Source: Vermamoeba vermiformis (Eukaryota). From it: 46,177 nucleotides of DNA. The stretch covers positions 372,001 through 418,177 of the forward strand of contig JBEWZL010000102.1 in the NCBI GenBank assembly GCA_045837725.1, written 5' to 3'. How positions within the stretch are numbered: the stretch's first letter is position 1; every line of letters begins with the position of its first letter. Positions 3,346 through 42,500 of the stretch are shown here, piece by piece. The notes beneath the pieces were generated by a model, which did not search any database, was not told the origin of the DNA, and was given only the letters and a program-made list of their open reading frames with translations. A program made the position numbers and the translations under genes.

Positions 3346-4980
3346 TTGAATTTAAATTACGATTTGACGCAATTTTCTTTTCTTAAAATAGCCTGTGTGA
3401 TTCAATAATTCCATCACGAATAATCTCCGGCGCAGATACAAGTAGTAATTTCGGTAATATATTATTTTAATCGGTTTTTATTTCACATTGTACAGTCTGT
3501 TGGAGGTTATTAAAGTAATAACGATGAAATAACAGTCATAATAGTCGCTGGTATAATCATTACGCCAGAGCTAGCCTTTTTAGCGATGGGCGTGGAGATG
3601 GGAGCAGCGACAGGAACGGAAACAGGTGCTGCAATTGGTACAGGGCAAGTAGTACCGCTGCAAGTTCCAGCGCTTGAGCACATGTCGTTGCAGTTATTGG
3701 CATTGCCGTCATCGCAGGTAGCATTGGTCTGGACGACGCATGAGCCAGACATGCACATACCACATCCGACGTCAATGGAGTTGGTCGAGCAAGCCATGCT
3801 ATCGTTATAAATGCAACTGCCGGTTTCGTTGAATACACCAAAGCAGGGTGCGATGCCACATTGGAAGCCAGGAGCGAAGCAGGTGCCGTCATCACCACAT
3901 GTTCCATTCACGTACATGGCGGCTCCATTCTGTGAGTAGCGGAAGTTGCAACGATCTCCAGCGTTCAGGTTCGCGCAGATGCTGCCTTCACAGTCGTCAG
4001 TTCCAAAGTTGCAAGCGCAATTTAAGAGACAAGCATCATGGAAAAAGGTAGGGTCAGGGTCACCTCCGTTGGCACCCCAATTGCTGAAGTTATCAGTCGA
4101 CGAGCATTCAATAGTTTCCCAATCGCTTTCGTTGGTTCTTTCTGGATGGAAGTGCCCTCCAACAGCATTGCCGGTATGACGACTAGCGATTGCGTCAAAA
4201 CCGCCGTACTCTTCGCAGATTTGATTGCATGTAAGACCAGTAGCGTTGCCAGTGTAGAAGAAACCGCCGTTGTAAGCGAAGCAGATCGAAGTCGAAGAAA
4301 CTGCCCAGAAAAGGCAGGAAGAAGCAAATACGGTGAACACGAGCAGTTGCTTCATTGTTGAGCTAGAAATGAAAATTGAATTAAAATCGTTCGAACGAGT
4401 CGCTTCATATACTTTACCGACTCACAACGAGATTGCATTCTGGAATATCAAGAATTTAAGTATACTATAATTAGTTACGCACCTTAAAAGGTGATTTCGA
4501 ATTTTTACCCGAAAGATAGAACCGTGGATTGCTTATTTATAACCTTCTTTACTCGTGTAGTATTAATACCGAACTAAACTTGACGCTAAAATGATCATAT
4601 TCAAGACGAAACTTTTCGCGTCCTCTTACGTATGCGTTGTACGGACCACTTTTTAAGATTATGCTGTATCTTCTGGATTGAGCGTTAGTTCACATGGATG
4701 AATTTCTGTTTTTTGTATTAAATGGACAATACTTTTAATCAGTCAGCAGATCGTGGCAACGTGGCCACTCTACCAAACTTACGTAGTGCGCGTCTCCAGA
4801 GGATCTTCCGACGATTGATCACCTTCAATGTTATGGCAAGCATTTAATTGCATTGACATATCTAGCTTTTGCAGTAGTTAGTTTCGAAACTTTACTGTGT
4901 TCGCAATAAATAAATTTGCTGAATCGAAAAAATGCGAACATGACTTACTTTGATCATATTAATATAATAGTACTCGCACT
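3346..4980. repeat. Segmental duplication block B, copy 1 (Cys-rich gene plus flanks)
   Basis: Homologous to about 9241-10610, covering the 3' flank (gattcaataattcc...taatctccgg), the CDS and patches of 5' flank (cgcaataaataaa, tcgaaaaaatgc, gacttactttgat). Confidence 0.85.
3510..4355 (-). CDS. Cys-rich secreted, probably GPI-anchored surface protein, paralogue 1
   Basis: Signal peptide MKQLLVFTVFASSCLFWAVSS; Cys-rich repeats (CDDGNANNCNDMCSSAGTC); Pro/Ala/Val stalk; SSG followed by a hydrophobic C-terminus. Confidence 0.9.
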   Translation of the reverse strand: MKQLLVFTVFASSCLFWAVSSTSICFAYNGGFFYTGNATGLTCNQICEEYGGFDAIASRHTGNAVGGHFHPERTNESDWETIECSSTDNFSNWGANGGDPDPTFFHDACLLNCACNFGTDDCEGSICANLNAGDRCNFRYSQNGAAMYVNGTCGDDGTCFAPGFQCGIAPCFGVFNETGSCIYNDSMACSTNSIDVGCGMCMSGSCVVQTNATCDDGNANNCNDMCSSAGTCSGTTCPVPIAAPVSVPVAAPISTPIAKKASSGVMIIPATIMTVISSLLL

Positions 4981-5363: not shown

Positions 5364-6228
5364 TCATGTGCGAAGAGCGGATCTCGTTTGATCATATCCG
5401 ACAAGTACCATCGCGCCCATCAACGCTGAAATGAATCCAAAGGGTCCTCGATAAAGTCCTCTCAATCCTTCTTGTCTGAAGATGTCTCTCGCGACTCGCC
5501 AGCCACGAGGTCGGATCGACTGGTCTATCATACATGTTCGTCGTCTTATCACTTGAAGTGGATGTGCTACTACGAGTGCTGTATATGAAGTGGCTGTAGC
5601 AAGCATAAGTGACTTGATTGGACTTCGTTCGGGATCCTCGATCAAGATCGGCTTCAACGTCTCGTATAATCCAAAGTAGAGACCCTTATGTACCAACGTC
5701 GGTATTGCTGCCTCTTGGAATCCATCATAATAATGCATAAACCGTGCCCATCCAGGAGCTGTCGATCCACTTGGAAGTTTAAACGGAACGTGTAGTCTTG
5801 ACAATGGGTGTAACACAGAAAGTGCGAAAAATCCAGCTAATGAACCAGCGCAGAAGTTTCCTATAGCTTTTTGACCCAGTTGATCGCTATTGAACATTGG
5901 TTTTGAGATGCGTGTCCAATAATGAAAGACACCAAATTGTATTCCCATTGCAAGGCCATACCGAGCTGAATTTTGCAAATTTTTGGTCCAAAATTTTAAT
6001 CCTACGCGTTTTGCACCTTCTATGATTGATTTGGGCGCAGGATCTGAATAAAATTAATTAGATCAAAAATTTTGACCGTAAAATATTAATATTAAAATAT
6101 GGCATACCTAAATACAGGATCAACCTATGGTTTTCAACGGGTGCCATGATAGTTTTAATTGCGGCCGCAGTCGTGCCAGCAATAATAGCATCCAACACAA
6201 AATATTTCGCTGCTGTACTTTGGCTCAT
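5364..6228 (-). CDS. Mitochondrial carrier (SLC25) protein, divergent ADP/ATP-translocase-like (about 266 aa; exons 6228-6108 and 6043-5364)
   Basis: AGTTAAAIKTIMAPVE, GNFCAGSLAGFFALSVLHPL, KGLYFGLYETLK, HPLQVIRRR, IFRQEGLRGLYRG and GAMVLVGYDQ follow the ANT pattern; phase-1 GTATGC..CAG intron. Confidence 0.85.
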
Positions 6229-9240: not shown

Positions 9241-10610
9241 TTGAATTTAAACTACGACTAACCTAAAAAGAGCCTGTGCGATTCAATAATTCCACACGAA
9301 TAATCTCCGGCTGAGATACAAGTAATTTGGTTAATTTATTAATACCGTTTTTATTTTCACATTGTACCGGTTGGAGGTTGTTACAGTAATAACGATGAAA
9401 TAACAGTCATAATAGTCGCTGGAATAACCATTGCACCAGAGCCAGACCTTTTAGCGACGGGCGCGGAAACGGGAGCAGCAACAGGAACGGAAACAGGAGC
9501 AGCAACAGGGACGGAGACAGGAGCAGCAATCGGCACAGGGCAAGTAGTACCGCTGCACATTCCGTCACTTGAGCACATGTCGTCGCAGTTGTTGGCATTG
9601 CCGTCATCGCAGGTAGCATTGGTCTGGACAACGCACGAGCCAGACATGCACATACCACATCCGACGTCAATGGATTCGGTCGAGCAAGCCATGCTATCGT
9701 TGTAAATGCAACTGCCTGTTTCGTTGAATACACCAAAGCAGGGCGCGACGCCACATTGGAAGCCAGGAGCGTAGCAGGTGCCGTCATCACCGCATGTTCC
9801 ATTCGTGTACATGGCTGCTCCGTTCTCTAAGTAGCGGAAGTTGCAACGGTCACCAGCGGTCAGATTCTCGCAGATGTTGCCTTCACAGTCGTCAGTTCCA
9901 AAGTTGCAAGCACAATTTAAGAGGCAAGAGATGTGAGAAAAGTTAGGGTCAGGTTCATCTCCGTTGGCACCCCAATTGCTGTCGTTATCAGTCGATGAGC
10001 ATTCAATAGTTTCCCAATCGCCTGGATTTGCTTTTTCTGGATGGAAGTGCACTCCAACAGCATTGCCGGTATGACGACTAGCGATTGCGTCAAAACCGCC
10101 GTACGGTTCGCAGATCTGATTGCATGTTTGAGCAGTGACGTTGGTAGTGTAGAAGAAACCGCCGTTGTAAGCGAAGCAGATTGAAGTCGAAGAAACTGCC
10201 CAGAAGAGGCAGGAAGCAAAGAATACGGTGAACACGAGCAGTTGCTTCATTGTTGAGCTTGAAATGAAAATGAAATCAAAATAGTTAGAACAAAACTCTT
10301 TGCCGAGCTCACAACGAGATTGCATTCTATAATTGGTTAGTCGCCTTAAAAGGAGATTTACAATCTCACCGAAAATAGAGCCGTGTAGTGCTTCTTTATC
10401 ATCTTATTTACCGTGTAGTATTGACGCTAATATAATTATATTATCTTGAAGACGAAACTATGTGTGCGTTGTACGGATCTTGGAGATCCCCTAATCCCTA
10501 ACAAAAAGTAACAAGTAAAAATAAGGTAGAAAGTTAACTGAGTGACGCAATAAATAAAATTTACGTGCATCGAAAAAATGCACGACTTACTTTGATTATA
10601 GTACTGGCAC
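9241..10610. repeat. Segmental duplication block B, copy 2
   Basis: Homologous to about 3346-4980. Confidence 0.85.
9381..10250 (-). CDS. Cys-rich secreted, probably GPI-anchored surface protein, paralogue 2
   Basis: Close paralogue of 3510-4355 (MKQLLVFTVFF start at 10250) with one extra PVAAPVSV-type stalk repeat. Confidence 0.9.
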   Translation of the reverse strand: MKQLLVFTVFFASCLFWAVSSTSICFAYNGGFFYTTNVTAQTCNQICEPYGGFDAIASRHTGNAVGVHFHPEKANPGDWETIECSSTDNDSNWGANGDEPDPNFSHISCLLNCACNFGTDDCEGNICENLTAGDRCNFRYLENGAAMYTNGTCGDDGTCYAPGFQCGVAPCFGVFNETGSCIYNDSMACSTESIDVGCGMCMSGSCVVQTNATCDDGNANNCDDMCSSDGMCSGTTCPVPIAAPVSVPVAAPVSVPVAAPVSAPVAKRSGSGAMVIPATIMTVISSLLL

Positions 10611-10644
10611 CTTCAAACTACATTTCTTTTCTTTGATATTGGTT

Positions 10645-11140
10645 TCAACTTAAAACTAACTCATTCCGCAGTACGTAAAGCCTTAAAATAGCATCGTCAG
10701 TAAAGCTTTGAAATAAGATTTGAGCAAACTTTGCATTAAATTCTACTTCCTCCAAAAATAGAAAATCTGTATCAACTTTTAAAACCTGCGGTATCTGCAT
10801 TCGTATATCACGTATGGTGGAATACTTGTCGATTTCCTGCCTAACTACGCAAATAAATAACAATACCGTATCGTGCAAAAAAATGATCAGGTAGGGATTG
10901 AGATGCCGAAACACGCTGGCAGGATCTCCATTCGATAATTCAGGCTGAGATAATGATATATTCTCAATGATGCTCAAACGAACCTTTTTAAGTATTAAAT
11001 GTGCAAGAGAAAGACGAATCTGAATAAATTATAAAAAACCGTATTAGTTTAGATCTGCTTATGCAGAGCATCGGATCCACTTACGTAAGAATTTCAGTGC
11101 TGCTTGACTGCTAAGAAAAGTATTCCAAGATCTAAGGACA
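10645..11140 (-). CDS. Possible small gene or gene remnant
   Basis: 110-aa ORF (10645-10977) with a GTAAGT..TTCAG intron just upstream; start not resolved. Confidence 0.25.
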
Positions 11141-11179
11141 TGTGGTGTCATTCGCGAGATATGAAATGTTTGGTGTTAA

Positions 11180-11210
11180 TTTTTTTTTTTGGTTTTGTGT
11201 TTTTGTTTTG

Positions 11211-11243
<33 letters not shown>
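11180..11243 (-). repeat. Poly(A)/A-rich tract (T31 at 11213-11243 on +)
   Basis: Homopolymer read directly from the sequence, with a degenerate T-rich continuation. Confidence 0.9.
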
Positions 11244-11244
<1 letters not shown>

Positions 11245-11472
11245 TCTAGGGTGCAGGTTGTGCACAAACTTTGAGAAGACATTAGCAGTGACCAAATACC
11301 GTATGAAATCGGTTGGTGCACCAAGTGTTTCAATTTCAATGACAAAAAAAATACGTGCATTTCGTGACCTAACTTGCTAAATTTACTTAACAAACTACAA
11401 ACTACAAGCTACAAGCTACAGCTAATAGCTAAGTATTGCATCAGTGCAGTGGTGTTCGAATCACAAAGCCCA

Positions 11473-14400
11473 TTAAATGTAAAACAACTTCGTAGCCAAG
11501 GTGTTGTCAGGTCTGCTTGGCAACATCGCAGCGGCAGCGAGCTTGGCCAACTTGTCAGCGTACTTCAACGGAGCGGGGCACGAAATAGGACCAGGCCAGT
11601 TGTAGTATAAGTGGCACAAGCTGTACGACAAGCGTTGCAAGTCCTTCATGTCAAAAGTCACCAGCTTCTTGTCGTCGGGCTCCTCGTGGTAGGCCAAGAT
11701 GTACTTCGGAGGTAGAACGGATTCTGAACACGTAGAATGTTAGCACTGATGCGCGTCACAGGTAAGAGCGACTTACTTTGTCCAGCATCGTGTGAGACCA
11801 AGTAGAACTCGCGCTGGCCGTTGCAAATGTGCTTCTCAACGAGGGTGCCAGGCTTGACGTTGGACACAACACCGTTCTCTTGTACGAACAAACGAGTGGT
11901 GCCACCACGACACACTAGCACGAACAACACTTCGGGCTGTGGTTGACCCTTGTACAGCTCAGCAACTGCATTCTTGACCTCTTTGACGTCATTGGTGTGC
12001 TAAGCTTAAGTTAGCGACAGTTCGTTAAAAGATAGTTGATTGTTTTAAAGACTTACCACGGCAACGAGCGAGCCCTCACTGGCACCGCTGCTGTAGAAGA
12101 CCAATCGGCCGGGCAACTTGTTGTTCTTCGTCTTGAAGGCAGCCAAGCCACGCTCAATGATGCTTTGCAACGACGGAATGCTGCCCGCGTTCTCACCCAC
12201 GTGATAGTTGAAGTACTCGGAGAATCGAGTCGGCTCTTTATCAACCGTGCACGTGACTGCAATCTTTGTCGTAGTTCTATAATTTAAGAGATTAGTAAGC
12301 CAGCCATATTGATAATTAAACAATACGTACGCTGTCTTTCTGTGGATCGATCGCTCAATGCCAAACACGCACGTGTGAAGCGCTGCCAACTTGTTGCCCA
12401 ACGGATCACCAAGTTCGACTACACCAGGAAATATATTAGTAATTCGTGCAATAAAAATTACGCGTGTTACGTACAAGTAGTGCTCCACAACACTGCACCG
12501 GCCTTGGTGAGCAGTTGCAAGCCAGCTTTCGTGACCTTGGACATGTCGGGACGGCCACCCTTGTTCAAGAATTTGCTGTCAACGAGTTAGTGATGCTGTC
12601 GCGGTGGTGGTCTAATTTGCAACTTACTCTCGCACAACAATTTGGCCAGGAACACCAGCGAGCAACAAGTCGCGCTTGACGGAGTTGTAAATGTTCACGT
12701 CGACACTTGCCAACACGACCAACACGACGGCTGGTTTGGGATTGGCCTTGCCAACTTGACTGATGTTTTTGTAGTTGTCAGTGACCCACTGAGGCTGTTC
12801 GATACCGTTCGGACACAATGGGCGCATCAACTTCACGAAAGTGTCGTAGAAGTTTCTGGCGTCACCCTCGAGCTGTTAATGACACGTGTCAGATCAAGGT
12901 TGGTGTGAAATGTCCTATTGTAGACTTACCGATCGATCAGTGACCCAGATCTGCCATGGGAACGTCGGCACGTTGAGCATCTTGTTGTTGGAATCATTGC
13001 GCAGCAAATGATCCCACAAGGGTTTCTCGGGTCGGTACTCTTGCGCGTGGAACTTGATCTTTTGAGGACGCAAGACGACAGCTTGAGGGTTGAAGAACTG
13101 ACTGTCCAACTGGACCGTTGAAAATTTGCTCGCTTTGGCCGTGGTTGCAAACTGCGTGATGAACTGTGAGAGCTGCTTGTGGCGGTCAACAGTTGAAGTC
13201 ACTGGCAAGCGTGTGTTCTTGAGTTCACTGGGGGGACTACAGTTCAAGTGTTAGTGCAACGGTCCTGCGAACACTAACGAGCTACTTACATTCCAGCGAT
13301 CTTGCAGAACTCGGGCACGAGGAAAATCGACTCCACACCTTGCTTTCGGCGCTGTGTCACTTCGAGCATGGGCTGGTTAACGGTCTAAAGTGGCACGTGT
13401 CAGATCAGATCCGATCCTCAATTGAAATATTTAAACGATATCGTTTTAGTACTTACGCGCAGTCGCAGACCATATCTAGTCTGATAGTAGTTGGCGTACG
13501 ATTGCTTCGTGCCATCTTTCAGCTCAAAGACGCTGTTTGGAGTCATGTCTCTGCGGACCTTGTCTACGATGTAATGGCGTCTATTGTGCTCGCAGTACAC
13601 CGACTGGCCCCGCATCTTGTCAGGGTCAGTGGTGTTGACGTAATGCAAGGCATTATCTGCCATAAGGAAAGTGAGTTAGTGCGTGGTAAATCTGTCATCG
13701 GAAAATTAAATTTCCTCCCAAACACGTGCTTTATCCTTATTTAGAAATAAAATCTTTACTACGTAATTTGATATATATTAAAGTTGTACTATAATTTATA
13801 AGCTTGATTTACCTCGTGCGATGGCGCGGTACTGAAAGTCGGTGTGCAAGTAGAGCTGCTTGTTGTGCAACACTACGACCTGTAATTATAGTCAGTTATA
13901 TTTGCAGACCATAAGACCGACGTACCGGATTAAAACCAGGCATAAACGAGACATTTCTGTCGTTTCCTTCGCTGGCATTGGCGTTGAAAAATCCTCGGCG
14001 ACCCATTGGTGTGAGACCCATGCCTTTCGTCAAGATCTAACAAAACAACGAAATTAGCTTGAGCATATTATAATAAGGTCCTATATAATGCAGTACTTAC
14101 GGGTTTTAAAAGAATGTTAATGATTTGGCAGATGAAAGCGCCCTCTGCAAATTTGAGCCAAAATTAGATCGTGCACTTTAGCGGATCTGGTTCGACTTAC
14201 CTTTACGCCAAACCATCTCGTATTCTTCGCCACCTGATTGCCTATACACGCGCTGCATGCCTTGCACGTCGGCTTCAAAATTGAACGCATCTGGGCCCGA
14301 GATTATGATTGAACAAACAGGTACTTCAGTCTCCACGCCATCCGTTTTGATTTTCTCCGTGAGCTCTAGCGGGGTCTTAAGATAGTTGGCGGGCAACGGG

Positions 14401-14955
14401 GCAAGTGTGAATAACGAGTTTCCCCACACAAAGCGCCTGCTCTTTTCCTTCTCTGTGATCTCTATAATAAAAATATATTGTTAGTAAGATCTTTAACTCT
14501 TTAAGGAACTTACTCATCGCGATAAAAGCAAGACGGAATATTCTTCGGACTTGCATGGGCTCCGTGATGATTTTACCATCCTATATTAATTTAATCTAAA
14601 ATTAGTAACTTGATCAGATCAAAATTTGATCAAAGATTGGCATCTTTTGAAACAGCATCATGCTTTTTATCGTTATTATATTTATAATATTAATATACGA
14701 TATTCGACGAGAAAAAACAAAGATATTTAGTGAAGTAAATAAAAAAAGCAGATTTGTAATGTGAAAAATTATTATGAAAGTTAAACGTACCGCAAATTCA
14801 AAATGGTACTTGTAGAGCGTTTGGTTCGTGAGGAGCGTCAAGGGCCAGTAGTTGGCTCGCACGTTCGCCGCCGGCATCTCAAGTTTAAACGCCGTGGTGT
14901 TTTGGCGCTTTGGATCGCGGTTGTCGATGCCCTCCGTCTTCCTTTTGAGATCCAT
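11473..14955 (-). CDS. PIWI-clade Argonaute (N-PAZ-MID-PIWI), about 15 exons, predicted non-slicing
   Basis: N-terminal VRANYWPL; PAZ (DMTPNSVFELKDGTKQSYANYYQTRYGL..QPML..IFLVPEFC); MID YNSVK..VPGQ..SKVTK..QLLTKAG; PIWI PGTLVE..REFYLVSH, LQRLSYSLCHLYYNWPGPISCPAPLKYADKLA; C-terminal KLFYI. Confidence 0.95.
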
Positions 14956-15829
14956 TGTTGAGTTGATGAAAAATAATTAAAATGAACACTCGTGGTCGTG
15001 GCCTCTTTAGTACAGAATAAATAATTCTGTCGCGAAATTGACCACCAAAATTTAAATTTTTGCCTACCAAAACCGCGGTAAACTAGCAAAATCTCCCTGG
15101 GTAATACTAGTACGATTCACTCGTAGATAATACATTAATTGCATTGTTACAATGGCTTTTTGTCCTCAGATGATCTGAGATCGAAATCAAAAACGCGTAG
15201 ATGCGTTGCATTAATTACTACGTGGTAAGATAAAAATAAGCTACAATGACTTATTACTGCGGGAACAATTATTATTTAACTTCGCCGCTTTTTTGTAAGT
15301 CTGTTAGCTCGACTAGCGTGAGGGTATAAACGGATGCTATTCCGATTTATTTAGGAGTTACTGATGGCTCTTCAACGCAACAATATTGTGATAACAAATA
15401 TTTGGCAGTCCTTATTGCGCCTGAGTTGATAGTCGAATCAGTTCGTTTAGTAAGTCTTTCAATTGAACTTCTGTTGATTACTCGTAACAAATAAGCAAAT
15501 ATCTTTCGCTTTTTAAGGGATCTAATCGGATTTTGCTTCTGTTAAAGTAAAATTCGTCCGCGCCCGCATACGTGTTTGCAAACAACTACGAGCGATTAGC
15601 CTTCATAGAGCGGGCTAGTAGATCTCCATAGCGTGTTATATTACACATTTTTGAAGTTTGAAGGATGCTACCATTCGGATCTTGACGCTTCCTTTGCTTC
15701 CAGAATTTTTCAAGTCCTAATAAGGAAATGTTTAATTAACTGCCACAGACTATAAAATATATCGTACTTTAATATACTATCATAGTAACTGCTTTTTTTA
15801 GTGAAAGCAACGCAATAGAACAAGAAAAA

Positions 15830-17021
15830 ATGTTGCACCAAGCCTTGCGCAAGATCGACCGAGTTATTAAGCCCACAACCATGTTCGACGGTAAGTAGAG
15901 TGCGATTAATATCAACACGAGAGTTGGTAATAATAGTTTACTACAGGAGCCTTTACGTTAAAAAGTACTATTGGCGGATCGAAACTCAAGTACTACGATC
16001 CGTTTTTATTGTTTGACGAATTCAAATCCGAATCAGTAAGCGGACGAAAATGACACTAATAAATATACACGAATACTAACAGCTTATTTATATTAGAATA
16101 AAGACATGGGAGGTTTCCCTGATCATCCTCATCGTGGATTTGAAACAGTGTCGTACATGTTAGCAGGCAGTTCCGAGCACAGAGATACAAAAGGCAATCA
16201 CGGCATACTTAAGGCTGGTGCCGTGCAATGGATGACTGCTGGCCGCGGTATAGTCCACTCAGAAATGCCAAAGCATGAAGACGGCTTGATCTGGGGCTTT
16301 CAAATGGTACGCACTTGACTAAACATCATTATAATATACATACTATCGAATATATACGCATATTAGTATCGAGGTGAGTGATTTTGATCAATACTAACGA
16401 GAATTCAATTTCAGTGGGTGAACTTGCCTAAAAAGGATAAAATGTCCGAGCCGAGGTACCAAGACATTCAAGCGGAGAATATACCCGTTGTAAAGCTTCA
16501 AGACGGCGTGACAATCAAAGTTATTGCTGGAGAAGTCAACGGCGTGAAAGGCGCTGTCACGCAAGTTGCGACCAAGCCTACGTACTTAGATATTCAAATG
16601 CCGCCCAATGCCAAGTTCAATCACGCAGTGCCTGCCGACTACAACGCATTTGCATATATATTTCAAGGCGAGGCTACGTTCTTGTCTGGCACAGATGTCA
16701 AACAAACCTATGAGGCCAGCAACATGATCCGTAAGTCCCGATTGACAAAACTGACCTTTAAGAACGCTTAATTGATATTAATACATTAATGTAGTATATG
16801 AACGAGGTAACGAAGTCGTTAGCATCGAAACTCAAGACCAAGCAGCGCGTGTGATCTTGGTGTCGGGACAAGTTATCGATGAACCCGTAAGTATCATTCA
16901 AATTATAAGCAAAATATAGGCTAATATATTGCATTAGATGGTCTCTTCAGGTCCCTTCGTTATGAATACCCGCGAAGAACTCGCGCAAGCCTACAACGAC
17001 TTCCGATCAGGCGACTTCTAA
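15830..17021 (+). CDS. PIR: Pirin family cupin protein (6 exons)
   Basis: [77 protein letters not shown]. Confidence 0.95.
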
Positions 17022-18870: not shown

Positions 18871-19837
18871 TTACAAATTTAACACATCCAGATTTACTGA
18901 TTTGATCGCTCGATTGGTTCTCGGACTCGTATCGTGTTGTCGTTCTTTCATCATTTCTTCTTCAGCGCACATGTCGCAATTGAAAAGACCGCATTTGGAA
19001 GGGCCATGAAATGATTGATGTTTGGGCTTGCCGTGTTTGTGGCGCTGTACAATAACGAGCACTTCAGGTTTCTCCTTCGATTCATTCTTTTCTCGATCCG
19101 AATCTGAATCTGATTCTGACGACGATGAATCTCGCGATCGAGATTTATTTTTTCGTCCTTTTTGCGTATTAGTACTATCACCATCTGAGCTGTAGCCTTT
19201 AACTCCTCTCTTGCCCTTCTTTCGTTTTTGTTTGACGAAGAAGCCTTTCCTGTTAGTTCCAGTTATGATTTCGGGCTCCTCTTCGTTGTGTTCGTGGCTA
19301 TGGTCATTTTTGTTAGTACCGTAGACTTGTCTGTAGAATTCTCCTTGGTGATTCGCTTTGTAATACACGTTGTTGAAGTCCAGATCCGCCACACGACAAT
19401 AGTTCACGTCAATATCTAATAATTATAACGTTAAACCCACGGAGTCATTGCAATAGCCTTATAGCGTTGAACAGATCTTGAATTTCAATTTCAAATTTTC
19501 GATTTTTTGTAGTTCGGATTTAAAGGATTATCCTTGTTGTTAATTATTTGTGGATGTATATTGACTTACCATCTCGTGAAGACCTTAAATGATTTTTATC
19601 TAATATTTCCCAATTTTTGTGGGCATTCAAACTGATCCCCACCCCAATATCCAAGCGAGGCCTCCAAGTATACGTAGTCGGAGTATCATTGGAATCAACA
19701 ATTGCAATCGTTTCATTTTGCTTTCGTAGCACGCTGCGGTCAAACTTGAGTGTCTTATTTGTTTTGACACCAAATCTGCCTTTTGTTTCTCGTGAATTGT
19801 TTTGTTTGCGATGTAAATCTATTTCTTCGTGCTCCAT
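18871..19837 (-). CDS. Orphan family protein copy 2 (about 270 aa; exons 19837-19570 and 19415-18871)
   Basis: N-terminal 33 aa identical to copy 1; same phase-1 intron; GTNRKGFFVKQKRKKGKRGVKGY; C-terminal CGLFNCDMC. Confidence 0.85.
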
Positions 19838-23696: not shown

Positions 23697-25139
23697 ATGT
23701 CACGAAGTTTATTGCACGGAGGAGTGGACAGCGCAGCTCCGTTATCCCCAGAAGAATATAATACCTTACTGGGTCTGAAAATCGGTTGCATTGCTCTTAT
23801 TCCAGCCTTGTCATTTTGTGGAGCGTAAGTCACATCTAATTTTAATTAAATAAATTTTATCGTATAACCACATAAACTTGACCAAATAGTAATTAAAATA
23901 TGTAATAATACTCTGAAGTGTATTATCTTATTTCTTTTAATGATTTGAAACGGTCAGAAATTCCTAAACAAGATCGAAAATCTTTGTCGCACGAACGCGA
24001 CATTATTTCTTGCTATCCGTATTCTCATATTAACATATATAATGTACTTAACTACTGATCGCGTTCTAACCGGAATTTCTTCATTCTCAGACTAGCGCCA
24101 TTACTCTCGAAGCAGATTCGCAAGAACACAACTGCCATTTCTTACTGCAATATATTAGCAGGCAGTATTCTTCTCGGCTTTGGTTTTCTTCATATTCTAC
24201 CGGATGCAGCTGAATCATTCTCCGATTGGGACGAAGCCGTCAATCACTTCCCAATCCCGTACGCGATGGTGCTGGTTGGATTCTTCGTCGTCTTATTGAT
24301 AGAAAAGCTTCTTATTATGCGTATCGAGAAGATGGCCGCAGAAAAGCGACGTGCAAAAGAAATGAAGAAAATTGAGTCTGCGTCGCCGGATGTGGCTGAG
24401 AAACTTGGTGACGAAGAGTGCGGCAACTGCGGAGAATGCAAAGAAGTGTCTGAGAAGTCTACTTCAGCCCACATTTCACAACGAGAGCTTTTGCAACGCA
24501 AGGACAATGAGGAAGTGGTGGTCGATCTTGAGGCCTCGAAATCTCATGCCCACCACGACCACAATCATGACCACCATGGCCACAACCACGCGCATGCCTT
24601 CCACACCCACGACGTACCGTTGGATAATGAGAGCAAGAGCGCCACGCCCTATGTTTTGACAATCGGTTTAGCGTTTCACTCAATTTTTGAAGGACTTGGC
24701 CCTGGCTTTCGCTGCAAGTCTTGATGGTATGTTAGCGCTTATATAATATTATTCATGACTTAGACTTACCGTATCATTAGCTATGATATTGTTGATCATC
24801 GGTATCGGATTGCACAAGTTCGCTGAAGGATTCGCTATGGGATCGAGCTTGGTCAAGATGGATTTGCGCCTCCGACGTGCTCTATTACTCGTAGCAGCTT
24901 TTTGCATCGTTTTGCCCATTGGTATTGCCATTGGATTGGGTCTTGGAGAAGCTTTGGACGAAGATGCGCTGAATCTGACCATGTCCCTTACCAACTCATT
25001 CGCAGTAGGTGTATTTATTTACATCGCTATTCTTGGTGTTTATGTCGAAGAGCTTGCCGGCAAGAACCACGTTATTGCCAAGATCGGTCTCGCGCTCGTG
25101 ATGTGCCTGACCATGGGCTGCTTGTCCTTTTTAGAATAA
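23697..25139 (+). CDS. ZIP (SLC39) zinc/iron permease with an apparent +1 frameshift near 24698
   Basis: GFLHILPDA, His-rich loop (HAHHDHNHDHHGHNHAH), LAFHSIFEGL, LHKFAEGFAMG, PIGIAIG, AVGVFIYIA..EEL; exons about 23697-23824, 24091-24727 and 24781-25139. Confidence 0.9.
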
Positions 25140-25411: not shown

Positions 25412-26369
25412 ATGGACCACAAAGAGATTAATTTAGACGTTAAACAGACAAATAGACGACACTCAACTGGTCGTTATGGCATCAAAACGAACAAAACGGT
25501 GAAGAAGCATCCAATCCACACGAACGACGCCCGTAACGCCACTGAAGAAATTATTAGTACTGTAGAAGTAGATAATACGGCCCCGCCAGCAACTTACGCG
25601 TATCAAGCTGCGCCAGTAAGCGTTCCAGTGAGTTTGAATAAAAGAAAAAATTGGGAAACCGTCAATAATCTCAAAAAATCTCAAGATGGTACGTATCGTT
25701 AGTAATATTATTAAGCTATTTGATGCACGATTGATTATTTTAAAAATCTACATACAATTCTGGAATTTCAGATTTTTCCTTTACCTTAAATCCGGTCGTG
25801 GGTCTTATGCACGTAGCATAGCTATATTACTCACGAAAAAATTTTATTTCGCAGATATCAATGTTGGCTATCGCGTGGCGGAGATCGAGACTTACAGCAC
25901 CAAATCCGACTACACAGACACAGGCATCGCTAAACTAAAAATGAAACTGTACCAACTCGATCGAGCTCCGCCTAAAAACGAACAAAAGACTGTTATTGAA
26001 TCTGGCGTCAATCGCAAAGGCCACTTTGTTCGAGAAAAACGGAAGAAAGGAAAGAAAGGAGTTAAAAACTATAATAATAGCAATAGTAGTAGTCCTAATA
26101 ATAGAAATAACAATAACGGCCGTTCTCGAAGCGATTCTGGATCTGGATCAGAAAACGAATCTACAGGCGAAGGAAGCGGTGAAGAAGATAACGACAAATA
26201 CACATTGTACGTAGTTCAAAAACGTATCAAGAATCCAGCGTCAATTCGAAGCGGTCCTTTCTATGGCTGCACTTGCACTCGTACTTGTCATTGTGGCAAA
26301 GAACTTGGAACAAGGCGCAGACGAGATGTTGCACAAGATATTGCAGGATTGGATATCAATGCGCTATAA
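25412..26369 (+). CDS. Orphan family protein copy 3 (about 263 aa; exons 25412-25688 and 25855-26369)
   Basis: GRYGIKTNKT, SLNKRKNWE, same phase-1 intron, GVNRKGHFVREKRKKGKKGVKNY, YGCTCTRTCHCG. Confidence 0.85.
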
Positions 26370-26459: not shown

Positions 26460-27476
26460 ATGGACCACAACGAGATTAATTTAGACGTTAAACAGACAAA
26501 TAGACGGCATTCAACTGGTCGCTATGGCATCAAGACGAATAAAACGGTGAAAAAGCATCCAATCCACACTGTCAGCGCCAACAAGGCAGCAGAGACTATA
26601 AGCACCTTGGATGTCGACGAATCAGCTCCACTTACAAGACATAATTATATTTATGGCTTTCTTAGTGCTCCTGTAAGCCTGGGAGTGAGTTTGAACAAAA
26701 GAAAAAATTGGGAAACCGTCAATAATCTCAAAAAATCGCAAGATGGTACGTATGCGTTTAGAAATGCAATTGTTTATTTGATTTGAACCTTGAATTACCT
26801 CGAAAATATACTGGGAATTTTTAAATAATTATTTTGATACTTCGTTTTCGTACCAAAGTAAACCTTTCGCCTTATCATTATTTACACTTTTTAATAAACG
26901 AATATTGAGTAATAATAATAATAATATATTTGATTAGATATTAATGTTGGTTACCGGATCGTGGAGGTAGACAATTACACCCCTAAAGGCGACAGTTCTC
27001 GGCGAGTCGTTGGTAATTTAAAAATGCAACTCTATCGTCTCGATAAAGCACCAGCTAAAGATGAAAAGAGAACTCAAATTGAATCTGGCGTCAATCGTAA
27101 AGGCCACTTCGTTCGAGAAAAACGGAAGAAAGGAAAGAAAGGAGTTAAAAACTATAATAGCAACAATAGTAGTCCTAATAATAGAAGGAATAATAATTAC
27201 GAAGGTGATAGAAGTAATACCAGTTCAGCCTCAAATTCAAGTTCTGGATCCGTATCCGACAATTTTGACGAAGAAGGCGGCGAACAAAATGGTGATTATG
27301 GTAATTATACCCTATATATAGTGCAAAAACGTATCAAGAATCCGGCGTCAATTCGAAGTGGTCCTTTCTATGGCTGCACTTGCACTCGTACTTGTCATTG
27401 TGGCAAAGAGCTTGGAACAAGGCGCAGACGAGATATCGCGCAAGAAATTGCTTCGTTGAATATCAACCTACAATAA
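26460..27476 (+). CDS. Orphan family protein copy 4 (about 274 aa; exons 26460-26745 and 26938-27476)
   Basis: Tandem paralogue of copy 3, starting 90 bp after its stop; same motifs and intron position. Confidence 0.85.
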
Positions 27477-32237: not shown

Positions 32238-35200
32238 TTACTGCAGTTGTCTTTTCTTTTGCAATATGAACTCATTAACCGCATCAAGGTCCATTTCGTA
32301 GCTGCCGTACCAAGCAGATGTGACAAAATGAGCGTCACCACAAAGTGTCAACATCAAGTCTAAAAATAGTCTTTGACTTAATTGCAGTGGATAGCCTTGT
32401 CTCCAACTTGGCTCTAGTACGAATTTTCCGAACGATTCGATGCCAGATCCAATGAACTGTCGTTGGAATTTTTGCATTTGTTTCGGTTCATGAACCTCTT
32501 GGCCAAATTCAACGATTGGCACAGCATTTTCTGCGTGCTAATAATACGAGAATTAGAATCGACATAATGAGAAATAGGTCTTCTCGAAGTCTTTGCAAAT
32601 ATTTTTGTCCCACGTGACAAACATTCACTGAACCAATTTAGCCAAAATCTACTTACGTCAATGACAGCAATTCTGAACAACATCATTTCAGCTAGTGTTT
32701 TGTCGTACAAAATGTGCATGATGAACACGTGCTCTTTCAGTGAAAAGCGAATGACGCGTGAGTACGTGTAGACCATTCTGCGCCACCAAGGGTGCATCTC
32801 ATAACAGCCAAATCCTTCGTCCCAATCTTTAAAATATGAAAGAATTAGTCAAGTTTAAGTTAATGAAAGTGTCTCAAGGGCACTTGCCTAATATGGAAAT
32901 TCCCTCCGCAAGTGTTTTAATAGCTTTGTACTCCTTTTCTGCTGAATCCTTAGACCTTGCCGGCACATGGAATAATCCGCGCCAACTTCTTCCGTCCCGC
33001 AATTTGTCGCTTAAGATCTGTTTCATGAACCGTGTTAGTTCCGACTTGGATGTGTTTGAATTGTTTTTACCTTGTCAAGCAGCGACATCATGGCGACCTT
33101 CTTTTCTTGCAAATGTGAGTATATTAGTCCATTATAGAGTACACCAGTGCCTTTGTAAGATGACACCAGTGGTTGAACACCAAGATCTGGCCAAAAAAAA
33201 TTGGTCACCAATCAATCATATGAATATCTTATTAATATATCGTTGACTTACTGCCATTTTGAATCGTTTTGATGATTGGAAAGTTTTGTTCGAACAACAA
33301 GGTCTGAAGCAAATTGAAAAATCCTTGGACGGATGTCGTTTTGACGTTCAATTCTTTCATGAGCCAAATAAGGTTATCTTCTTTTAATACGACCATTGGT
33401 GATTTGACGGCTTTCGTAGTGTACCTCAATGTGACTGGCTGATAATTTCGGTCTACGATGAACCTCGGTTTTCCGCATTGATCTTCCATTTGAACATAAG
33501 ACACCAAGTCTAACGTTTGATTTCCTTTTTTGGCTTTCATATAGCACGTGTCAATAGGTGGCCACAGGTCTGGACCGTCATCGCCTTCTTCACGCGTCAT
33601 AAACGATTGCGTGAGGACCATGTGTTTGTTGAAGCACCACTCGAGTTCTAATAACTCGCCGTCATTCAAAACAAAGTATAGCTTCTCGTAGTCTACGGGC
33701 ACATATTAATATTAATAATTATATATTTATCATTATTTACCTGATCGGTCTGATGATCGTCCAACATAGGGGTGCTCACGGAAAAAATGTTGCAATTCTA
33801 CAGCAAAATATGAGATATTTAAAATAATATGCTAAGTTAATAATATTAATGGTACATTATAATTGAACGGTATGGCCTAATAGAATGAAAAAAAGTGAAA
33901 ATTCGCGGTACGTACTGGCAAAATAAACGCGGTCAACGACGTGTTGGAATTCTTTGACTTCATCATTCTTCGGCTCGTATTTAGTGATACTTTTCATCAA
34001 ACTTCGCCAATTTTGTCGCATGTACTCTCGCTTCCATAAACGGAAATATTCCGGCGCGTTAATCTCATTAAACATCTTGCGTAGTTTTTCCGCCTGTTTC
34101 GGTCAGTAATCTATGATAGATTCAAAGTTAAACTTACGTTTTGATAAGTCGTCTTGATTTTTAACGCTTGTTGAATAGTTTCTTCGGCCTCTGAAAAAAA
34201 ATTGTTAATGAAATTTCGAGGTATTTTTCGTTCAATTTTTTCTTACTGTACTTCAAATGAAACAAGCTGTAGACCTTCAAATATTCTTTGACAGGAAGAC
34301 CTATTCTGAATTATTAGTATTTGATAACCTTATATATTATAGGCTTGGTCTTACCAATCTCTTTTTGAACTCGTCGTTGGATCTCCGTCAAAATTGCATT
34401 GTTCCACGATTTTGACACTGTTCGAATAACTATCAAATTTGATCCTTGCAGTGCTACTCGGCATTATTTCTGGCAGCAATATGATCAGTCTGTCATCGTC
34501 ATTCGACTTTTTTTGTACCGATGCCTTCGGAACAGTACCGACGGTTTGACCAGGCTCAGTTTTGATTGGTTCAAATGGATTTGGTTGATTATGCTTCACG
34601 CCGTCACTTTCAAAGTAATCGCCTCGTTCTCTGGCTTTTAAATCCAAATAATCATTGATCGCTTTAAAATCCAGGAACACCTCTAGCTCCCTGTGAAAAA
34701 AACAAAAAATCATAAATTGCTGTATCTTCATATAATATATGCTTAATATTTCTTACCCTTGGTCGTCATTAACTCCACGAACAAAAGCAATGTCGCCAGT
34801 GATCGTTAGAACGAGATCCAAGAACGCCTTTTCGTCAATCGAATTCATCACTAGTTTGCTCGGCAAATAATTTTGTATGTCAACATCAATCGAGTAAATA
34901 TGCATGGGCTTCCAAGCAGCTTCAACGATCAATGGGTAGTTGAACTCTTCGTAGAACAACGATTTGCTGGTCAATTGTTGGCCAGGCTGCAAAGATAGAT
35001 AGACTAGCGTTAATGAACTAGATATAATAGATGTTACGCCGAAAGAAGAGCAACCGAAAAAAAAAAACAGAAACAACACGCGCACGGCCGAGCGGAGGAG
35101 AAAGGTGCGTCGAGCTGTGAAAAATAAGAGCGGTAAGAGTACTGTGTATGGAGATACGCGCAGCTCCTTAAAATATAATGCCTTTTGACTCTCCGGTGGA

Positions 35201-37365
35201 AGGGTGCAGGGGTGGAGAAGGCTTTTGCGTGAATCCACCAACCGCTGGAACTCCAAGCCCATATTTTATTCGAGTGAGAGCTTCTCTGGAGAGAAAAAAA
35301 AAAAGGAGAGAGGCGCTTTTCCGGGAGGGAAGGCGGGGCGGGAGTCTTATGTAGGGTGGGGGAGGAGGGGGCGGGGGGGGAGGAGTTGAGATTTTGTTGT
35401 TGCACTGTTTCGGCGTAACAATAGAACGTTGTTCATATGATGCAAAAGCTTACTTGAATTTGATAAACATAATATTCGATGGATCCGCCGAGCGTTTTAT
35501 CGTGCAAGACTCGCATGAAGAAATTGATGCCGTAGAGTTGAAACACAATCACGCGCCAATACGACCAAACATTCGTTTTGTACCATGGATGTATATCAAG
35601 GACTGCATATTGCTCCTCCCATTCTGACCAATCATAAATTAGATCCGGACAAAAATAAATAAACATATTACTTACGTAATATCGACGTGTTTTCAGCAGC
35701 TCGTTTCATCTTCGCGTAATATTGTTCTTTGTGGCCAATGGCTTCATATACTCCACGCCAACTGTTGCTATCGTGAGACTTGTCTTCGATGATCTGGATC
35801 CAGAACAAATTAATACAGGCTGGTGTAAATAAGAAAAAGTCTTACTGTTTTCATTAAGCACATCATAGATAACTTCTTCTCGTGTAAATGTGCGTAAATT
35901 AATCCGCGGAACAAAGGCGCTTCATTATCGTTGATCTCAATATCAAAATCAATTTCAAGATCTACATTAGTGTATTAGACTATGAAAGTACTATAGTAGT
36001 ATATAATGTCTCTTACCGTTATCTTGAATTGACTGCGCAGGACGATAATTGATTTCATAGACGAGTCCAGCAAGGAAGTTGAAAAAATCACGGCTCGGCA
36101 CATTTTTCACGCCCAATTGGTTCATCATCCAGTGCAAATTATCTTCGTTCAATTGCACCGCAGGGTCCTTGAAGTATCGGCTCTTAGGCCTACTCATCAT
36201 ATACAACAAGTTTGTCTCGGTCACGAAAATTTGTCGATTTGCCATGTCGTGTAGTTGGACGTATGTTACCAACTCGTGAGAAGTTCCATTCAACGTGCAA
36301 GTGAGTCTTAGTATATCTCTTGGCGGCCACAAGTGCTCCAAGCCTTTGACAACTTCGCCAATGCTATGTGCTGCCACCACGTCCTTCTCAAACACGTACT
36401 CTAACGTCATCAAATCACCGTTCTTAAGTACGATTTGTAACCGTTCGTTATCTTATAAAAACGTTAATAACGTTATACTAAGTATGACATTACATACCTC
36501 TACGGTCTGCGGATTGATCATGAAAAGGATATTCGCGCCATAAGTGTACAATTTCTACGGGAAGTTAGATGCGGATCTAATTTGCAGTCAAGACTTACTC
36601 TTGTAAAAAGTGCGTTGTACAATACTAAATAAAGTATTATAGTGCGGTCCTAATGCCGTTTGAGAGGCGGCGGACCAATACTGCAACATGTGCTGTCGCT
36701 TCCAAACGAGGTAATTCTCCGGCGTGTTTAATGCCCCAAATTCAATGCGTAAATCATCGGCCTATAAATTAATATCGTTAGTTTATATTCTTTTACCTCC
36801 ATAATAATTTTTGTACCGTTTCCCAAGTCGTTTTTCGATCCATAAGGTTTTCAAGTTGTATTTCAGCCTCTATTGATAATAATTAATATATATATGGAAA
36901 GCTATCATTATTTTAGTACCAATTACGGGCTTGACCAGCTTATAAATCGTGAGTAGCTTCGTTGGTGAGTCCTCGATCTGCGGCATCTCCTCACCTTTGA
37001 AAGTGAATTAGTCTTGACAAAGGCAATTTCAATTATGAATAATTTATACCCAGCTCTTCGATAATACGGAGGTAAATCTCGTCCATAATAGTCTCATTCC
37101 ACAACTTCGAGACAGATCGAACGCTTATAAGGTCTACGTAATCGAAAAATATTCTAATCGTTGCATAGGCCCAATACTCTACATTTCCCTCTAATTAAAG
37201 TGGTTAGAGCAATTTTAAATAATATTTTCAAAAATTTCATTCAAGCAGATTCAGCTTTCGTGGCGAATCTTTGTCGTCGAATCCAAGTAATTTTTATATT
37301 AATAATACGAACATACCTGAAAGGTACTTCTCGTAAGTCTTTCGTTCGTGTGCGTGTGGATCCAT
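32238..37365 (-). CDS. Large multi-exon protein with an N-terminal F-box-like motif and two tandem copies of an unrecognised domain
   Basis: Start MDPHAHERKTYEKYLS; IRIFFDYVDLISVRSVSKLWNE; paired motifs in both halves (NxPExxxxWKR, NGDL/DGEL..LWPPxD..LVxYVQ..LxEDNLxWxMxxLxV..FFNxL, HPW..DKTL, FLDLxLTxxGD); unit 1 splices in frame into unit 2. Confidence 0.7.
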
Positions 37366-39512: not shown

Positions 39513-42500
39513 ATGTCTGGTCCTAGAACAAAATCTGCAACATTTCAGCGACGTTTTAAGTGGTGCACCACAATGTCTAAGTACGCTAAAAGGCAGATAG
39601 AAAAACAGCAGTCCGATAATAGGCATCGTGGCGGATCTGTCGATATTTTTGAAGAGGATGTTGACAGTGACGAGTTTGCTATCGACTCTGAAGACTCGGA
39701 AGAAGAGATTAAGAAAGTACATAAAAAGAGCTTCGGAAAAATTAAATTAGATCAACCTTCTGACGTTGTTGGCTGGGGTAAGCGAATTTAATCAAAATTA
39801 TTTTCGTTCTTGTCTTTTTCCATCCGACGTGATTTTTATCGAAATTATATGCTATGTATATAGCAACACGATCATAATATTAGTTTGCACGAAGAATGCA
39901 CGCTAAATTATTTTTTGACAGACAAAACCAGATTGAGCATTGCCGAAAAAGGAGGTAAGCGTTTGTGTGGCTAATTATCGTTGATTAATTCATATGTATA
40001 ATAAATAATTATAACAGGATTTGGAGCCTCGCTAGTTTCACTTTTGAACCACAATTCAGCTCAAGTTAAAGATCTCACCAACGCTGCTATCTCATCCTTA
40101 AACATTACAGGTAAAATACCAAAAGTACTATTTTTAGGGTGCCGGAAATATTATCGAAGAATTTTCGAAATGGAGCCGTAACGGATGTCAACAAAATTAC
40201 TAAAAATTTAAATTTGTCAGAGGAAGGCGTGATCACCATCAAATCGCTCGAAGGCCTCATTCCTATATTTAAATTGGCCAAAATAGACGATGCTGAGGTC
40301 CAATGCAAAGCTGTCTGGGCTCTGGCCATTATTGCCAGCCAAAATGGTACGTGCATCTCGTTACAAAACCGCCAAAAACCTACAATTAAGCCAAAATATT
40401 ACGTTAGTCCCAAATAATATTATTTACAATAATTGTTTAATCGGATTGTATTTTTAAGACGGATCTTATAATTTAATAACTTTTTCTTCATTACTCACCA
40501 CTCGTTATTTTTAGGCGGAAATTTGCGTCTATTTAATCTCAAAGGCAGCTGGTTACTTTTGAAGCGCCTATCATTCTCTCACAACACCGCGACTCAATGG
40601 GGCATTGCAAATATTGTCGGACACATGGCCTTATACGGTACGACGATATTCTCGAGTCTAAACATAGCACCATATTAATATACAATAGGCCCTAATCTCC
40701 CACAAATGGTCGAAAAAGGTGTCGTGCAAATGCTCAAAGTTTTTTCAACGAGTGAAAGTTTGTACGTGCGCAGATCTGCAATGAATGCCTACGCCCTGTT
40801 GAGCTCTGATGGTACGACCTATATAATGATTATATAGTAGGTGCCTAATACTATTTAATGCATAGCTAAGAATGCTGCTATTCTCGCACAAGACGGCGGA
40901 ATTGATTTCGTAATGACACAACTCAAATACAACGACCTCGAACTTCAACGTGCAGTCGTGCATTGTATTGCGAACATTGCTAATGCTGGTACGTCTAATC
41001 TATTACTCTTCATCTATGCTGTAGTTGTCACAACGAATGTTCAAATTGTGACACGTGTCAAGCACGAAGTTGAATTTGACCGGGTTGACACGTGTCACAT
41101 TCTTTCTCGTACCGCGTAGGAAATATTTTGCACGTGAATGTACCTTACAAACTCATTTTATCGTTCACATAATATAACTATCATAATTTTTTACGAAAGT
41201 GGAATTGACGTGTTGCAATTTCTAGGCGATGTATGGCAAGAGGAAATCGTCAAATGGAACGGCATTGAATTGCTACAACATTTGCTGCAAAACAAAGACT
41301 GGATCTTGCAACAAACTGCCGCGCTGTGCTTGTGTCGCTTGACCTCGAATCGTACGTGACACTTTCAATGACACTTTTGACATCTTTTTTGACATTTGTA
41401 CTACCAGCTCTTGTGTGCAAGGAATTCTGCACCCGAGGTTCGTTTGAAGTGCCGTTTGAATTGCTCGTGATTGAAGATTTGGATCTAAGACTGAGTCTCG
41501 TGACTACGATCAATAACTTGGCCCAACACACCTCGTGTCGTGACCGAATGTTAGCGAGCATTGAGATCAGCAAGAAGACTAAAGAGACTGATAATTTGGC
41601 CTTTTTGATTCAATTGATTCGCAACACCGAAGATCATGACATTCAACGCGAGTGTCTCGGTGCCGTGAAACAATTGCACCCCGAGTTCTTTGACCGTAAG
41701 TCGAGATTTCCTTATTTGGTATAACCACGTGACTAACATTGCCGGTCTCTCATAGCTGCATTGTACGCAGCCGCACAGCTACAAATGCTGGACTCGATGG
41801 CCTCGAGCGAAGATGACGATGAAGATGTCAAGCCAAAGGTATCCAAACGTGAATTGAAACGTGTGGAGAGCAAGAAGGAAGCTAGAAAGAGCGATAAGAA
41901 GGCAAAGGACAAAGATAAGAAGGATGACACGAAAGGTAAAGTTAACTGCATAGTCGTAGCATTGAATTAACATTAACGTACTGATTGCTTCTTAGCGAAA
42001 AAAGATCGTGCCCTGCGAGTGCGACAACAAATCAGCAATTTCTTCTCGACAGACAAAAAACTCTCGCAAGACGCGTTAGCGAGACTGTTGCAACACGCGT
42101 CATCTGTCACGCGCACTGGTGACAAGAAGACGGACTTTATTAAGGTTATGTTGGCGCTTATTCAAGAAGACAAGAGCCACGGTGTTCAAAAGCAAGCTAT
42201 AATCGGCATTAGAAGGTTGGCAAAACGAGGTATGACACTTTGTGACACGTGTCAACATGTCACTTCAGACTGGTCTGACACTCTTGGCAGGCACCAAATC
42301 CAAATCGCTCGTGCGTCACTCTGGAGCCGTTGAGATCTTAATTGACGTCGTGAAGTCTGACAAAAAGCCTCGCTCTGTGTTGTCCGTGGCATTGCGTACT
42401 TTGTCGTACTTGATCACGACCGTTAAGGATCAGAACAAGATCAGAGAATCATCTTTATTTCCTTATTTGGTTAATATTGCCGAGAGCTCTCCTTCCGACA

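Follow-up and report, generated by a model that had tools for sequence, protein, structure and literature searches.

The stretch of Vermamoeba vermiformis DNA analysed here (46,177 nucleotides, hereafter the window) carries on its minus strand, from 14955 to 11473, a gene for an Argonaute protein of the PIWI clade in which both catalytic aspartates of the slicer site are replaced and the pocket for the guide RNA is kept. We read this gene as coding, in an amoebozoan closely related to Vermamoeba, for an expressed, functional PIWI-clade Argonaute that would bind a guide and pair with targets without cutting them, and we put the probability of this reading at about 0.8. Binding without cutting is proposed because the metal-binding aspartates and the residues on which the glutamate finger docks have been lost, and the guide pocket and the PAZ domain are retained and strongly constrained. 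A small guide RNA would be held by its 5' phosphate in the MID/PIWI pocket and by its 3' end in PAZ; the loaded protein would pair with a target RNA and leave it uncut, a platform for RNA-guided binding whose silencing effect would come from occupying the target or from bringing in other factors. Retention of guide binding is what established Argonaute biochemistry would lead one to expect, and a role in transcriptional or chromatin silencing may be suggested by analogy. An earlier reading, made from the letters of the DNA before any search (the sequence-only reading), had already proposed a guide-binding, non-cleaving PIWI. The kept pocket, the replacement of both catalytic aspartates, the expression of the gene and its conservation all favour that proposal; its claim about slicing stands as a prediction.

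Gene structure, transcripts and fold

Joined by coordinate, the 15 exons give an uninterrupted frame of 2445 nucleotides, or 814 amino acids, which opens with an ATG at 14955-14953 and closes with a TAA at 11475-11473. All 14 introns are GT..AG introns, with donors resembling GTAAGT and branch sites resembling CTAAC, and measure in order 210, 52, 56, 64, 46, 156, 72, 53, 57, 52, 56, 54, 57 and 53 nucleotides. No RNA family was found in the introns or flanks when 10500-16000 was compared with Rfam at E values up to 0.1. Part of the stretch is contained in 20 public sequencing runs, and four of the 23 runs listed (X1, X13, X21 and X23) were compared with it; X13 is RNA-Seq on record, and X1 is taken to be RNA by guess. 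The gene is laid out as follows, the joints being those read in transcripts.

11473..14955, minus strand: Argonaute coding span, 15 exons, 14 introns, 814 amino acids (splice model and transcript contigs)
14791..14955, minus strand: exon 1, with the ATG; joint 14579/14790 (cut +1), 210 nucleotides skipped, in X1 and X13
14514..14580, minus strand: exon 2 (splice model and transcript joints)
14201..14461, minus strand: exon 3, N domain; joints 14461/14514 and 14144/14201
14101..14144, minus strand: exon 4 (splice model and transcript contigs)
13926..14036, minus strand: exon 5; joint 14036/14101, and joint 13879/13927 with one replaced letter, which equals 13879/13926
13813..13879, minus strand: exon 6; joint 13656/13813, 156 nucleotides skipped
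13457..13656, minus strand: exon 7, PAZ core; Pfam PAZ at 5.2e-15 on 13418-13675
13290..13384, minus strand: exon 8; joints 13384/13457 and 13236/13290
12930..13236, minus strand: exon 9, linker L2 and start of MID (splice model and transcript contigs)
12628..12872, minus strand: exon 10, MID, with Tyr501 (12689-12687), Lys505 (12677-12675) and Gln516 (12644-12642) (splice model and codon mapping)
12475..12575, minus strand: exon 11, with pocket residue Lys537 (12529-12527) (splice model and codon mapping)
12331..12418, minus strand: exon 12, with Gly574-Ile-Glu576, Glu576 at 12356-12354 (alignment columns and read codons)
12057..12276, minus strand: exon 13, with Glu612/Asn613 (12194-12189) and Ser646-Ser647 (12092-12087) (alignments and transcript differences)
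11777..11999, minus strand: exon 14, Piwi domain with the VCRGGTTR segment; Pfam Piwi at 4.6e-09
11473..11723, minus strand: exon 15, with Asp788 (11556-11554), LFYI and the TAA; Pfam Piwi at 1.7e-11

Contigs from X1 and X13 are 95-99% like the window, lack the introns and together span 11441-14992. The exon structure, which the earlier reading had asked to see confirmed by RNA-seq, is borne out by them: X1 contigs show splicing at each of the 14 predicted introns, two of the joints carrying one or two replaced letters, and X13 shows it at 11 of the 14. The raw RNA reads of X21 and X23 are 90-95% like the window and mostly run into unlike sequence (share 0.84-0.88). Their differences match residues of a relative, P0003 (described below), showing that a gene of the P0003 type is transcribed. 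Being only 90-95% alike and P0003-like, these reads were rejected as proof of expression or of joints for the window gene itself, and a joint at 11810/11887, present only in them, was taken as a divergent stretch and not as an intron.

Two further observations concern the transcripts and the end of the gene. A second, low-depth X13 contig (record 9) covers exon 3 (14201-14461) with 29 other letters and a paired one-nucleotide insertion and deletion at 14324/14330, which suggests that the sample contains a further and more divergent form of the gene, either a variant or a relative. About 230 nucleotides past the Argonaute stop, at 11213-11243, lies a run of some 31 letters, A as read on the minus strand and T on the plus, outside the transcript contigs, which begin at 11441.

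Two full-length relatives accompany the window protein throughout. P0002, of 808 amino acids, comes from JGI contigs of 2.6-3.6 kb, and one member of its cluster is named 'aubergine-like'; P0003, of 807 amino acids, comes from the EukProt transcriptome of Vermamoeba vermiformis. Pfam searches with eight exon pieces of the window gene found PAZ (5.2e-15) and Piwi (1.1e-07, 4.6e-09 and 1.7e-11) on four of them, and no Pfam family on the other four. Among the full-length relatives, P0003 gives Piwi at 2.9e-41 and PAZ at 1e-24. The PAZ domain extends over about residues 246-346 of the window protein (genomic 13636-13209). P0003, which is 73% identical, stood in for the window protein in the comparison with Protein Data Bank (PDB) sequences, in AlphaFold2 (AF2) modelling and in the Foldseek search. 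Its sequence matches 44 distinct PDB sequences, the best 11 of which are all of the PIWI clade (1.6e-50 to 1.2e-35), with Drosophila Piwi first (1.6e-50), Siwi next (1.1e-47), then MIWI, EfPiwi and MILI/HILI; the top match of the AGO clade stands at 5.1e-17. For P0003, AF2 produced from a 119-row alignment a model with a mean predicted local distance difference test score (pLDDT) of 86.8 and a predicted template modelling score (pTM) of 0.88. Used as a Foldseek query, it finds PIWI-clade structures as its best 14 matches, with template modelling (TM) scores of 0.69-0.86, and it aligns to Argonaute structures over about 810-880 columns at a TM score of about 0.7-0.86.

PAZ and Piwi thus stand in one chain of about 800 residues with the N-PAZ-MID-PIWI fold, and both sequence and structure matches point to the PIWI clade as against the AGO clade. 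As far as sequence and model can tell, the product of the gene is a real PIWI-type Argonaute. The sequence-only reading had this right: splicing does yield a full N-PAZ-MID-PIWI frame, which is open over 814 residues, holds PAZ and Piwi by Pfam and is found in spliced transcripts. Its start, end, codon positions and motifs (CVFGIERSIH, FYSSGASEG, VCRGGTTR, YADKLA, YNSVK, PGQ, SKVTK and LFYI) were likewise correct.

Slicer site and guide pocket

The residues of the active site were compared in a MAFFT alignment of the window protein and 147 homologues of at least 560 residues (148 rows, drawn from 163 sequences, with three near-identical copies of P0002 omitted); pairwise alignments, made with HMMER phmmer, used P0003. 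The catalytic tetrad of Argonautes is DEDX, where X is H or D (passages of PMC7015924 and PMC12477606), and a complete DEDH is present in 95 of the 148 rows. Where the canonical tetrad has D-E-D-H, the window protein has E576, N613 (adjoined by E612), S647 and D788, which is not the D-E-D-H/D of a slicer-competent protein. At the first position, Glu576 (codon GAG) stands in a column that is D in 137 of 148 rows and E in four, namely the three rows of the window clade and Tetrahymena Twi9. The third position, Ser647 (codon AGC), belongs to a column with D in 136 rows and S in five; just before it, Ser646 takes the place of an Arg found in 142 rows, S occurring there only in the three rows of the window clade. 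Glu576 and Ser647 are genuine departures from the family, given D in 137 and 136 of the 148 rows. The fourth position is H in 111 rows and D in seven, and Asp788 is a permitted state there, since the canonical last residue is either His or Asp (the tetrad passages of PMC7015924). Glu576 is assigned to position 1 because a conserved Gly stands two residues before it and a conserved Asp 20 residues after it, the latter a spacing also seen in Siwi and Piwi, and because the multiple alignment places it there.

The glutamate finger, which is E in 107 of the 148 rows, is missing from the window protein under every alignment made. In the two HMMER pairwise alignments of P0003, Siwi Glu708 and Piwi Val653 face a Thr whose counterpart in the window protein is Asn613; MAFFT sets the finger against Gly615. 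The invariant Glu612 adjoins. In human Ago2 (hAgo2), His600 and Arg668 stabilise the plugged-in glutamate finger (structural passages of PMC7015924). The residue of the window protein that matches His600 is Ile579.

The tetrad had been called dismantled in the sequence-only reading, a fair word for the replacement of both catalytic aspartates by Glu and Ser. The accompanying remark, which allows an acidic residue at the last position alone, is wrong, since the Glu at position 1 is acidic too, and the finger region had been left unassessed. The VCRGGTTR segment was read correctly and does not belong to the tetrad. GID or RDG motifs in transcripts, which would have told against the idea, did not turn up; the Glu and Ser codons are present in them.

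The 5'-phosphate pocket in the MID domain is kept, as the motifs YNSVK, PGQ and SKVTK had led the earlier reader to think. Column counts agree: Tyr501 is shared by all 148 rows, Lys505 by 145, Gln516 by 146 and Lys537 by 124, and the C-terminal LFYI lines up with the C-terminus of the family. A guide-binding Argonaute is marked by the Tyr-Lys-Gln-Lys set and by a conserved tail with a free C-terminal carboxylate; having this set and tail, the protein is predicted to bind RNA. Animal PIWI proteins of the pathway of PIWI-interacting RNAs (piRNAs) carry N-terminal Arg-Gly or Arg-Ala repeats, which are symmetrically dimethylated and bind Tudor proteins; the guides of that pathway are 24-31 nucleotides long, 2'-O-methylated and produced independently of Dicer. 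The window protein has no RG or GR dipeptide in its first 80 residues and in this respect does not resemble the animal piRNA type. Its N-terminus carries a small conserved basic patch, and the N-terminal 14 residues are disordered in the model of P0003.

Constraint, placement and alternative readings

The window protein is 72.1% identical to P0002 (581/806) and 73.2% to P0003 (587/802), and these two are 70.0% identical to each other. The three are colinear, with no insertions or deletions at exon junctions, and have in common CVFGIERSI, YSSGAS, VCR(G/S)GTTR, KYADKLA and LFYI; YSSGASEG recurs in a fragment, P0016, that represents a fourth lineage. The finger position differs among the relatives, being Asn or Thr. 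At the nucleotide level, 40 of the 147 differences from the transcripts were listed (107 were not shown), and 33 of these 40 fall at codon position 3 and 32 are synonymous. Two of the synonymous changes touch the altered slicer codons: that of Glu576 reads GAA for GAG in X21/X23, and that of Ser647 reads AGT for AGC, at 12087, in X1 and X13. At most eight of the 40 are non-synonymous, whereas a share of 0.77 would be expected of random changes (P = 5e-14); among the near-strain differences alone the count is two of 13 (P = 5e-06). The far set, made of reads at 90% likeness, is biased to conserved stretches, and the near set is unbiased. These figures indicate that the gene is under purifying selection and is not a pseudogene. 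Lack of expression together with relaxed constraint, the outcome that would have spoken for decay, is not what is seen: change is mostly synonymous and the transcripts are spliced. A search for DNA of the relatives for a formal ratio of non-synonymous to synonymous rates (dN/dS), by two scans of metagenome contigs and one of viral contigs, gave pattern matches, none of which was confirmed.

Beyond these close relatives the family is remote from others. Among 1.84 billion representative sequences, 3068 proteins pass E 0.001, and the next full-length match after P0003 has 29% identity (E = 6.4e-45). A word-indexed protein search with full-length P0002 returned only P0002, P0003 and one springtail Piwi; because only these three came back, the family is judged too divergent for that kind of search. 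The named matches include Tetrahymena Twi9, Acanthamoeba castellanii XP_004353057, proteins of Physarum and Anaeramoeba, and animal Piwi/Aub proteins; none of them was identified as coming from Dictyostelium. FastTree, run on the 148 rows, joins the window clade to the Acanthamoeba protein (P0127) with support 98 and a warning of long branches. A quick IQ-TREE analysis with a mixture model, run on 28 rows chosen from the 148, gives the clade a stem branch of 2.45 changes per column and Twi9 as its neighbour (support 84, not starred). The grouping with Twi9 may be a product of long-branch attraction, as FastTree picked Acanthamoeba instead. The two trees thus disagree on where the lineage falls within the PIWI clade.

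Several points weigh against the interpretation of the protein as a functional binder that does not cut. Loss of slicing is deduced from the amino acid sequence, and the change at position 1, Asp to Glu, is a conservative one. Glu576, Glu612 and Asp788 leave three acidic residues near the site, with which a weak or re-wired activity is conceivable. The alignments are not of one mind: phmmer against Drosophila Piwi sets its Asp opposite Gly574, two residues away from Glu576, and the finger position differs between alignment methods. The structure model is that of P0003. As for transcripts and constraint, the full set of 14 joints comes from X1, whose status as RNA is guessed; the counts of synonymous change cover 40 of the 147 differences; and since the exon-13 differences are listed in part (five of six for the X1 contig, three of seven for X13), the Ser-Ser pair cannot be stated for the near strain. 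Finally, the three or four lineages may be either orthologues in different amoebae or old paralogues.

The alternative that fares best, unlikely as we think it, is that the protein binds guides or RNA fragments as the cofactor of another enzyme, as Tetrahymena Twi12 does for the exonuclease Xrn2, and is no target-silencing platform. Roles of this sort have been adopted by protist PIWI proteins that lack active sites (sections of PMC5340916), and the very long stem (2.45 changes per column) would fit a shift in function. Nevertheless, no feature of the sequence is specific to this idea, and the PAZ domain and the 5'-phosphate pocket are canonical.

It is a little harder still to believe in a re-wired metal site, formed by Glu576, Glu612, Asp788 and possibly another residue, that would make the protein an unorthodox slicer still cutting RNA, even though these three residues are invariant in the window protein, P0002 and P0003 and the pocket is strongly constrained. 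Substitution of either catalytic aspartate in hAgo2 abolishes slicing, which counts against such a site, and the third aspartate is Ser in every lineage seen, as is the Arg before it. DEDD Argonautes do use an Asp at position 4 for catalysis, but Ile579 stands where hAgo2 has His600, and in hAgo2 both the Arg and the His hold the finger (for both points, passages of PMC7015924). Nor would a catalytic residue be expected to vary between Asn and Thr, as the finger position does.

A decaying gene or an assembly artefact, in which the odd motifs would be errors or neutral drift, might account for the loss of both catalytic aspartates in so divergent a lineage (next full-length match at 29%), but it is highly improbable and, as pseudogene or assembly error, is ruled out by the frame open over 15 exons, the spliced transcripts in two runs, the identical motifs in colinear, independent relatives at 70-73% and the 32 synonymous differences of 40, those in the Glu576 and Ser647 codons included.

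The binder reading leaves space for two bolder ideas, on which we would not bet. The lineage may be a long-lived, fast-diverged PIWI branch whose invariant Glu576-Glu612-Asp788 might be no relic but a re-built metal site with another chemistry or substrate; or a tubulinean amoeba, host to giant viruses and Legionella, might rely on this protein as its principal or sole Argonaute, and its RNA-guided defence would then work wholly without slicing.

Known systems and the surrounding region

Argonautes that bind under RNA guidance without slicing are already known in animals and ciliates, and the window gene is a further case. A close parallel is Drosophila Piwi, a nuclear protein of the animal germline piRNA pathway with an N-terminal nuclear localization signal. 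Its tetrad is DVDK, and it does not slice and acts as an RNA-guided binding platform (as described in parts of PMC7015924). It is the best PDB match of P0003 (PDB 6KR6, 1.6e-50) and shares with the window protein the N-PAZ-MID-PIWI fold, the guide pocket and a non-canonical tetrad. The two sites differ in what they have lost: Piwi keeps both aspartates and lacks the Glu finger and the His, whereas the window protein lacks both aspartates and the Arg and carries an Asp as its fourth tetrad residue. The two are only about 23% identical.

Among protists, Tetrahymena Twi2 and Twi8 lack cleavage residues, and binding without cutting has been described for Ago/Piwi proteins without active sites (in the relevant sections of PMC5340916). 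The Twi proteins are, like the window protein, protist PIWI-type Argonautes, and Twi9 (P0052), its nearest neighbour in the mixture-model tree, reads E-T-Q-E at the tetrad columns; it too has lost both catalytic aspartates and is the only row outside the clade with Glu at position 1. Identity is 25%. The five Argonautes of Dictyostelium discoideum, AgnA-E, belong to the PIWI subfamily, have PAZ and PIWI domains, and are all reported to carry an intact DEDH and probably to slice (excerpts of PMC4559204); they resemble the window protein as amoebozoan PIWI-type Argonautes and differ from it in this tetrad.

The nearest named amoebozoan match is an Acanthamoeba castellanii 'piwi domain containing protein, partial' (XP_004353057, P0127), which BLASTP aligns to P0003 at 1e-39 (677 columns, 25% identical). 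Its C-terminal LCHLYYN...PAPL(K/R)YAD(K/R)LA stretch and its Asp at position 4 are shared with the window protein. In contrast, its third position still has Arg-Asp (YRDD), the first-motif segment is absent from the partial model, and in the mixture-model tree it is not joined to the window clade. The main text of an amoebozoan survey of RNA interference (passages of PMC11014262) makes no mention of Vermamoeba, tetrads or Piwi, and a full-text literature search for both Vermamoeba and Argonaute yielded one unrelated review only.

The gene would add a clear, expressed and conserved case of the non-slicer type in Tubulinea (Amoebozoa), an independent example in which both catalytic aspartates are lost and the guide pocket is kept. 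It leaves the general understanding of Argonautes unchanged. Small-RNA studies of Vermamoeba-like amoebae, known hosts of giant viruses and Legionella, gain in it a defined candidate.

The surroundings are those of an ordinary eukaryotic gene region, with the following recognisable neighbours.

5364-6053, minus strand: mitochondrial carrier (Pfam 4.9e-16)
24059-24724, plus strand: ZIP zinc transporter (Pfam 5e-23)
42236-42976, plus strand: armadillo repeats (Pfam 3.2e-07)
44083-44155, plus strand: tRNA-Lys (CTT) (ARAGORN)

Some of the other open reading frames (ORFs) in the window form groups. Two paralogous Cys-rich ORFs on the minus strand, 3510-4421 and 9381-10403, are 83% identical (252/302); each has a start like that of a signal peptide, a tail of Pro/Ala/Val repeats and a hydrophobic end, and no Pfam family was found in either. 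Two minus-strand ORFs of about 155 amino acids, 33232-33705 and 35991-36452, look like paralogues, with LWPP.D and VTYVQ-type stretches in common and no Pfam family. Four more ORFs, 369-899 and 18871-19422 on the minus strand and 25638-26369 and 26934-27476 on the plus strand, share the basic motif NRKGHFV.(E/Q)KRKKGK.GVK.Y, followed by a Ser/Asn-rich stretch of low complexity and a tail that contains Cys; the two tested against Pfam matched no family. These four ORFs are a dispersed, lineage-specific gene family.

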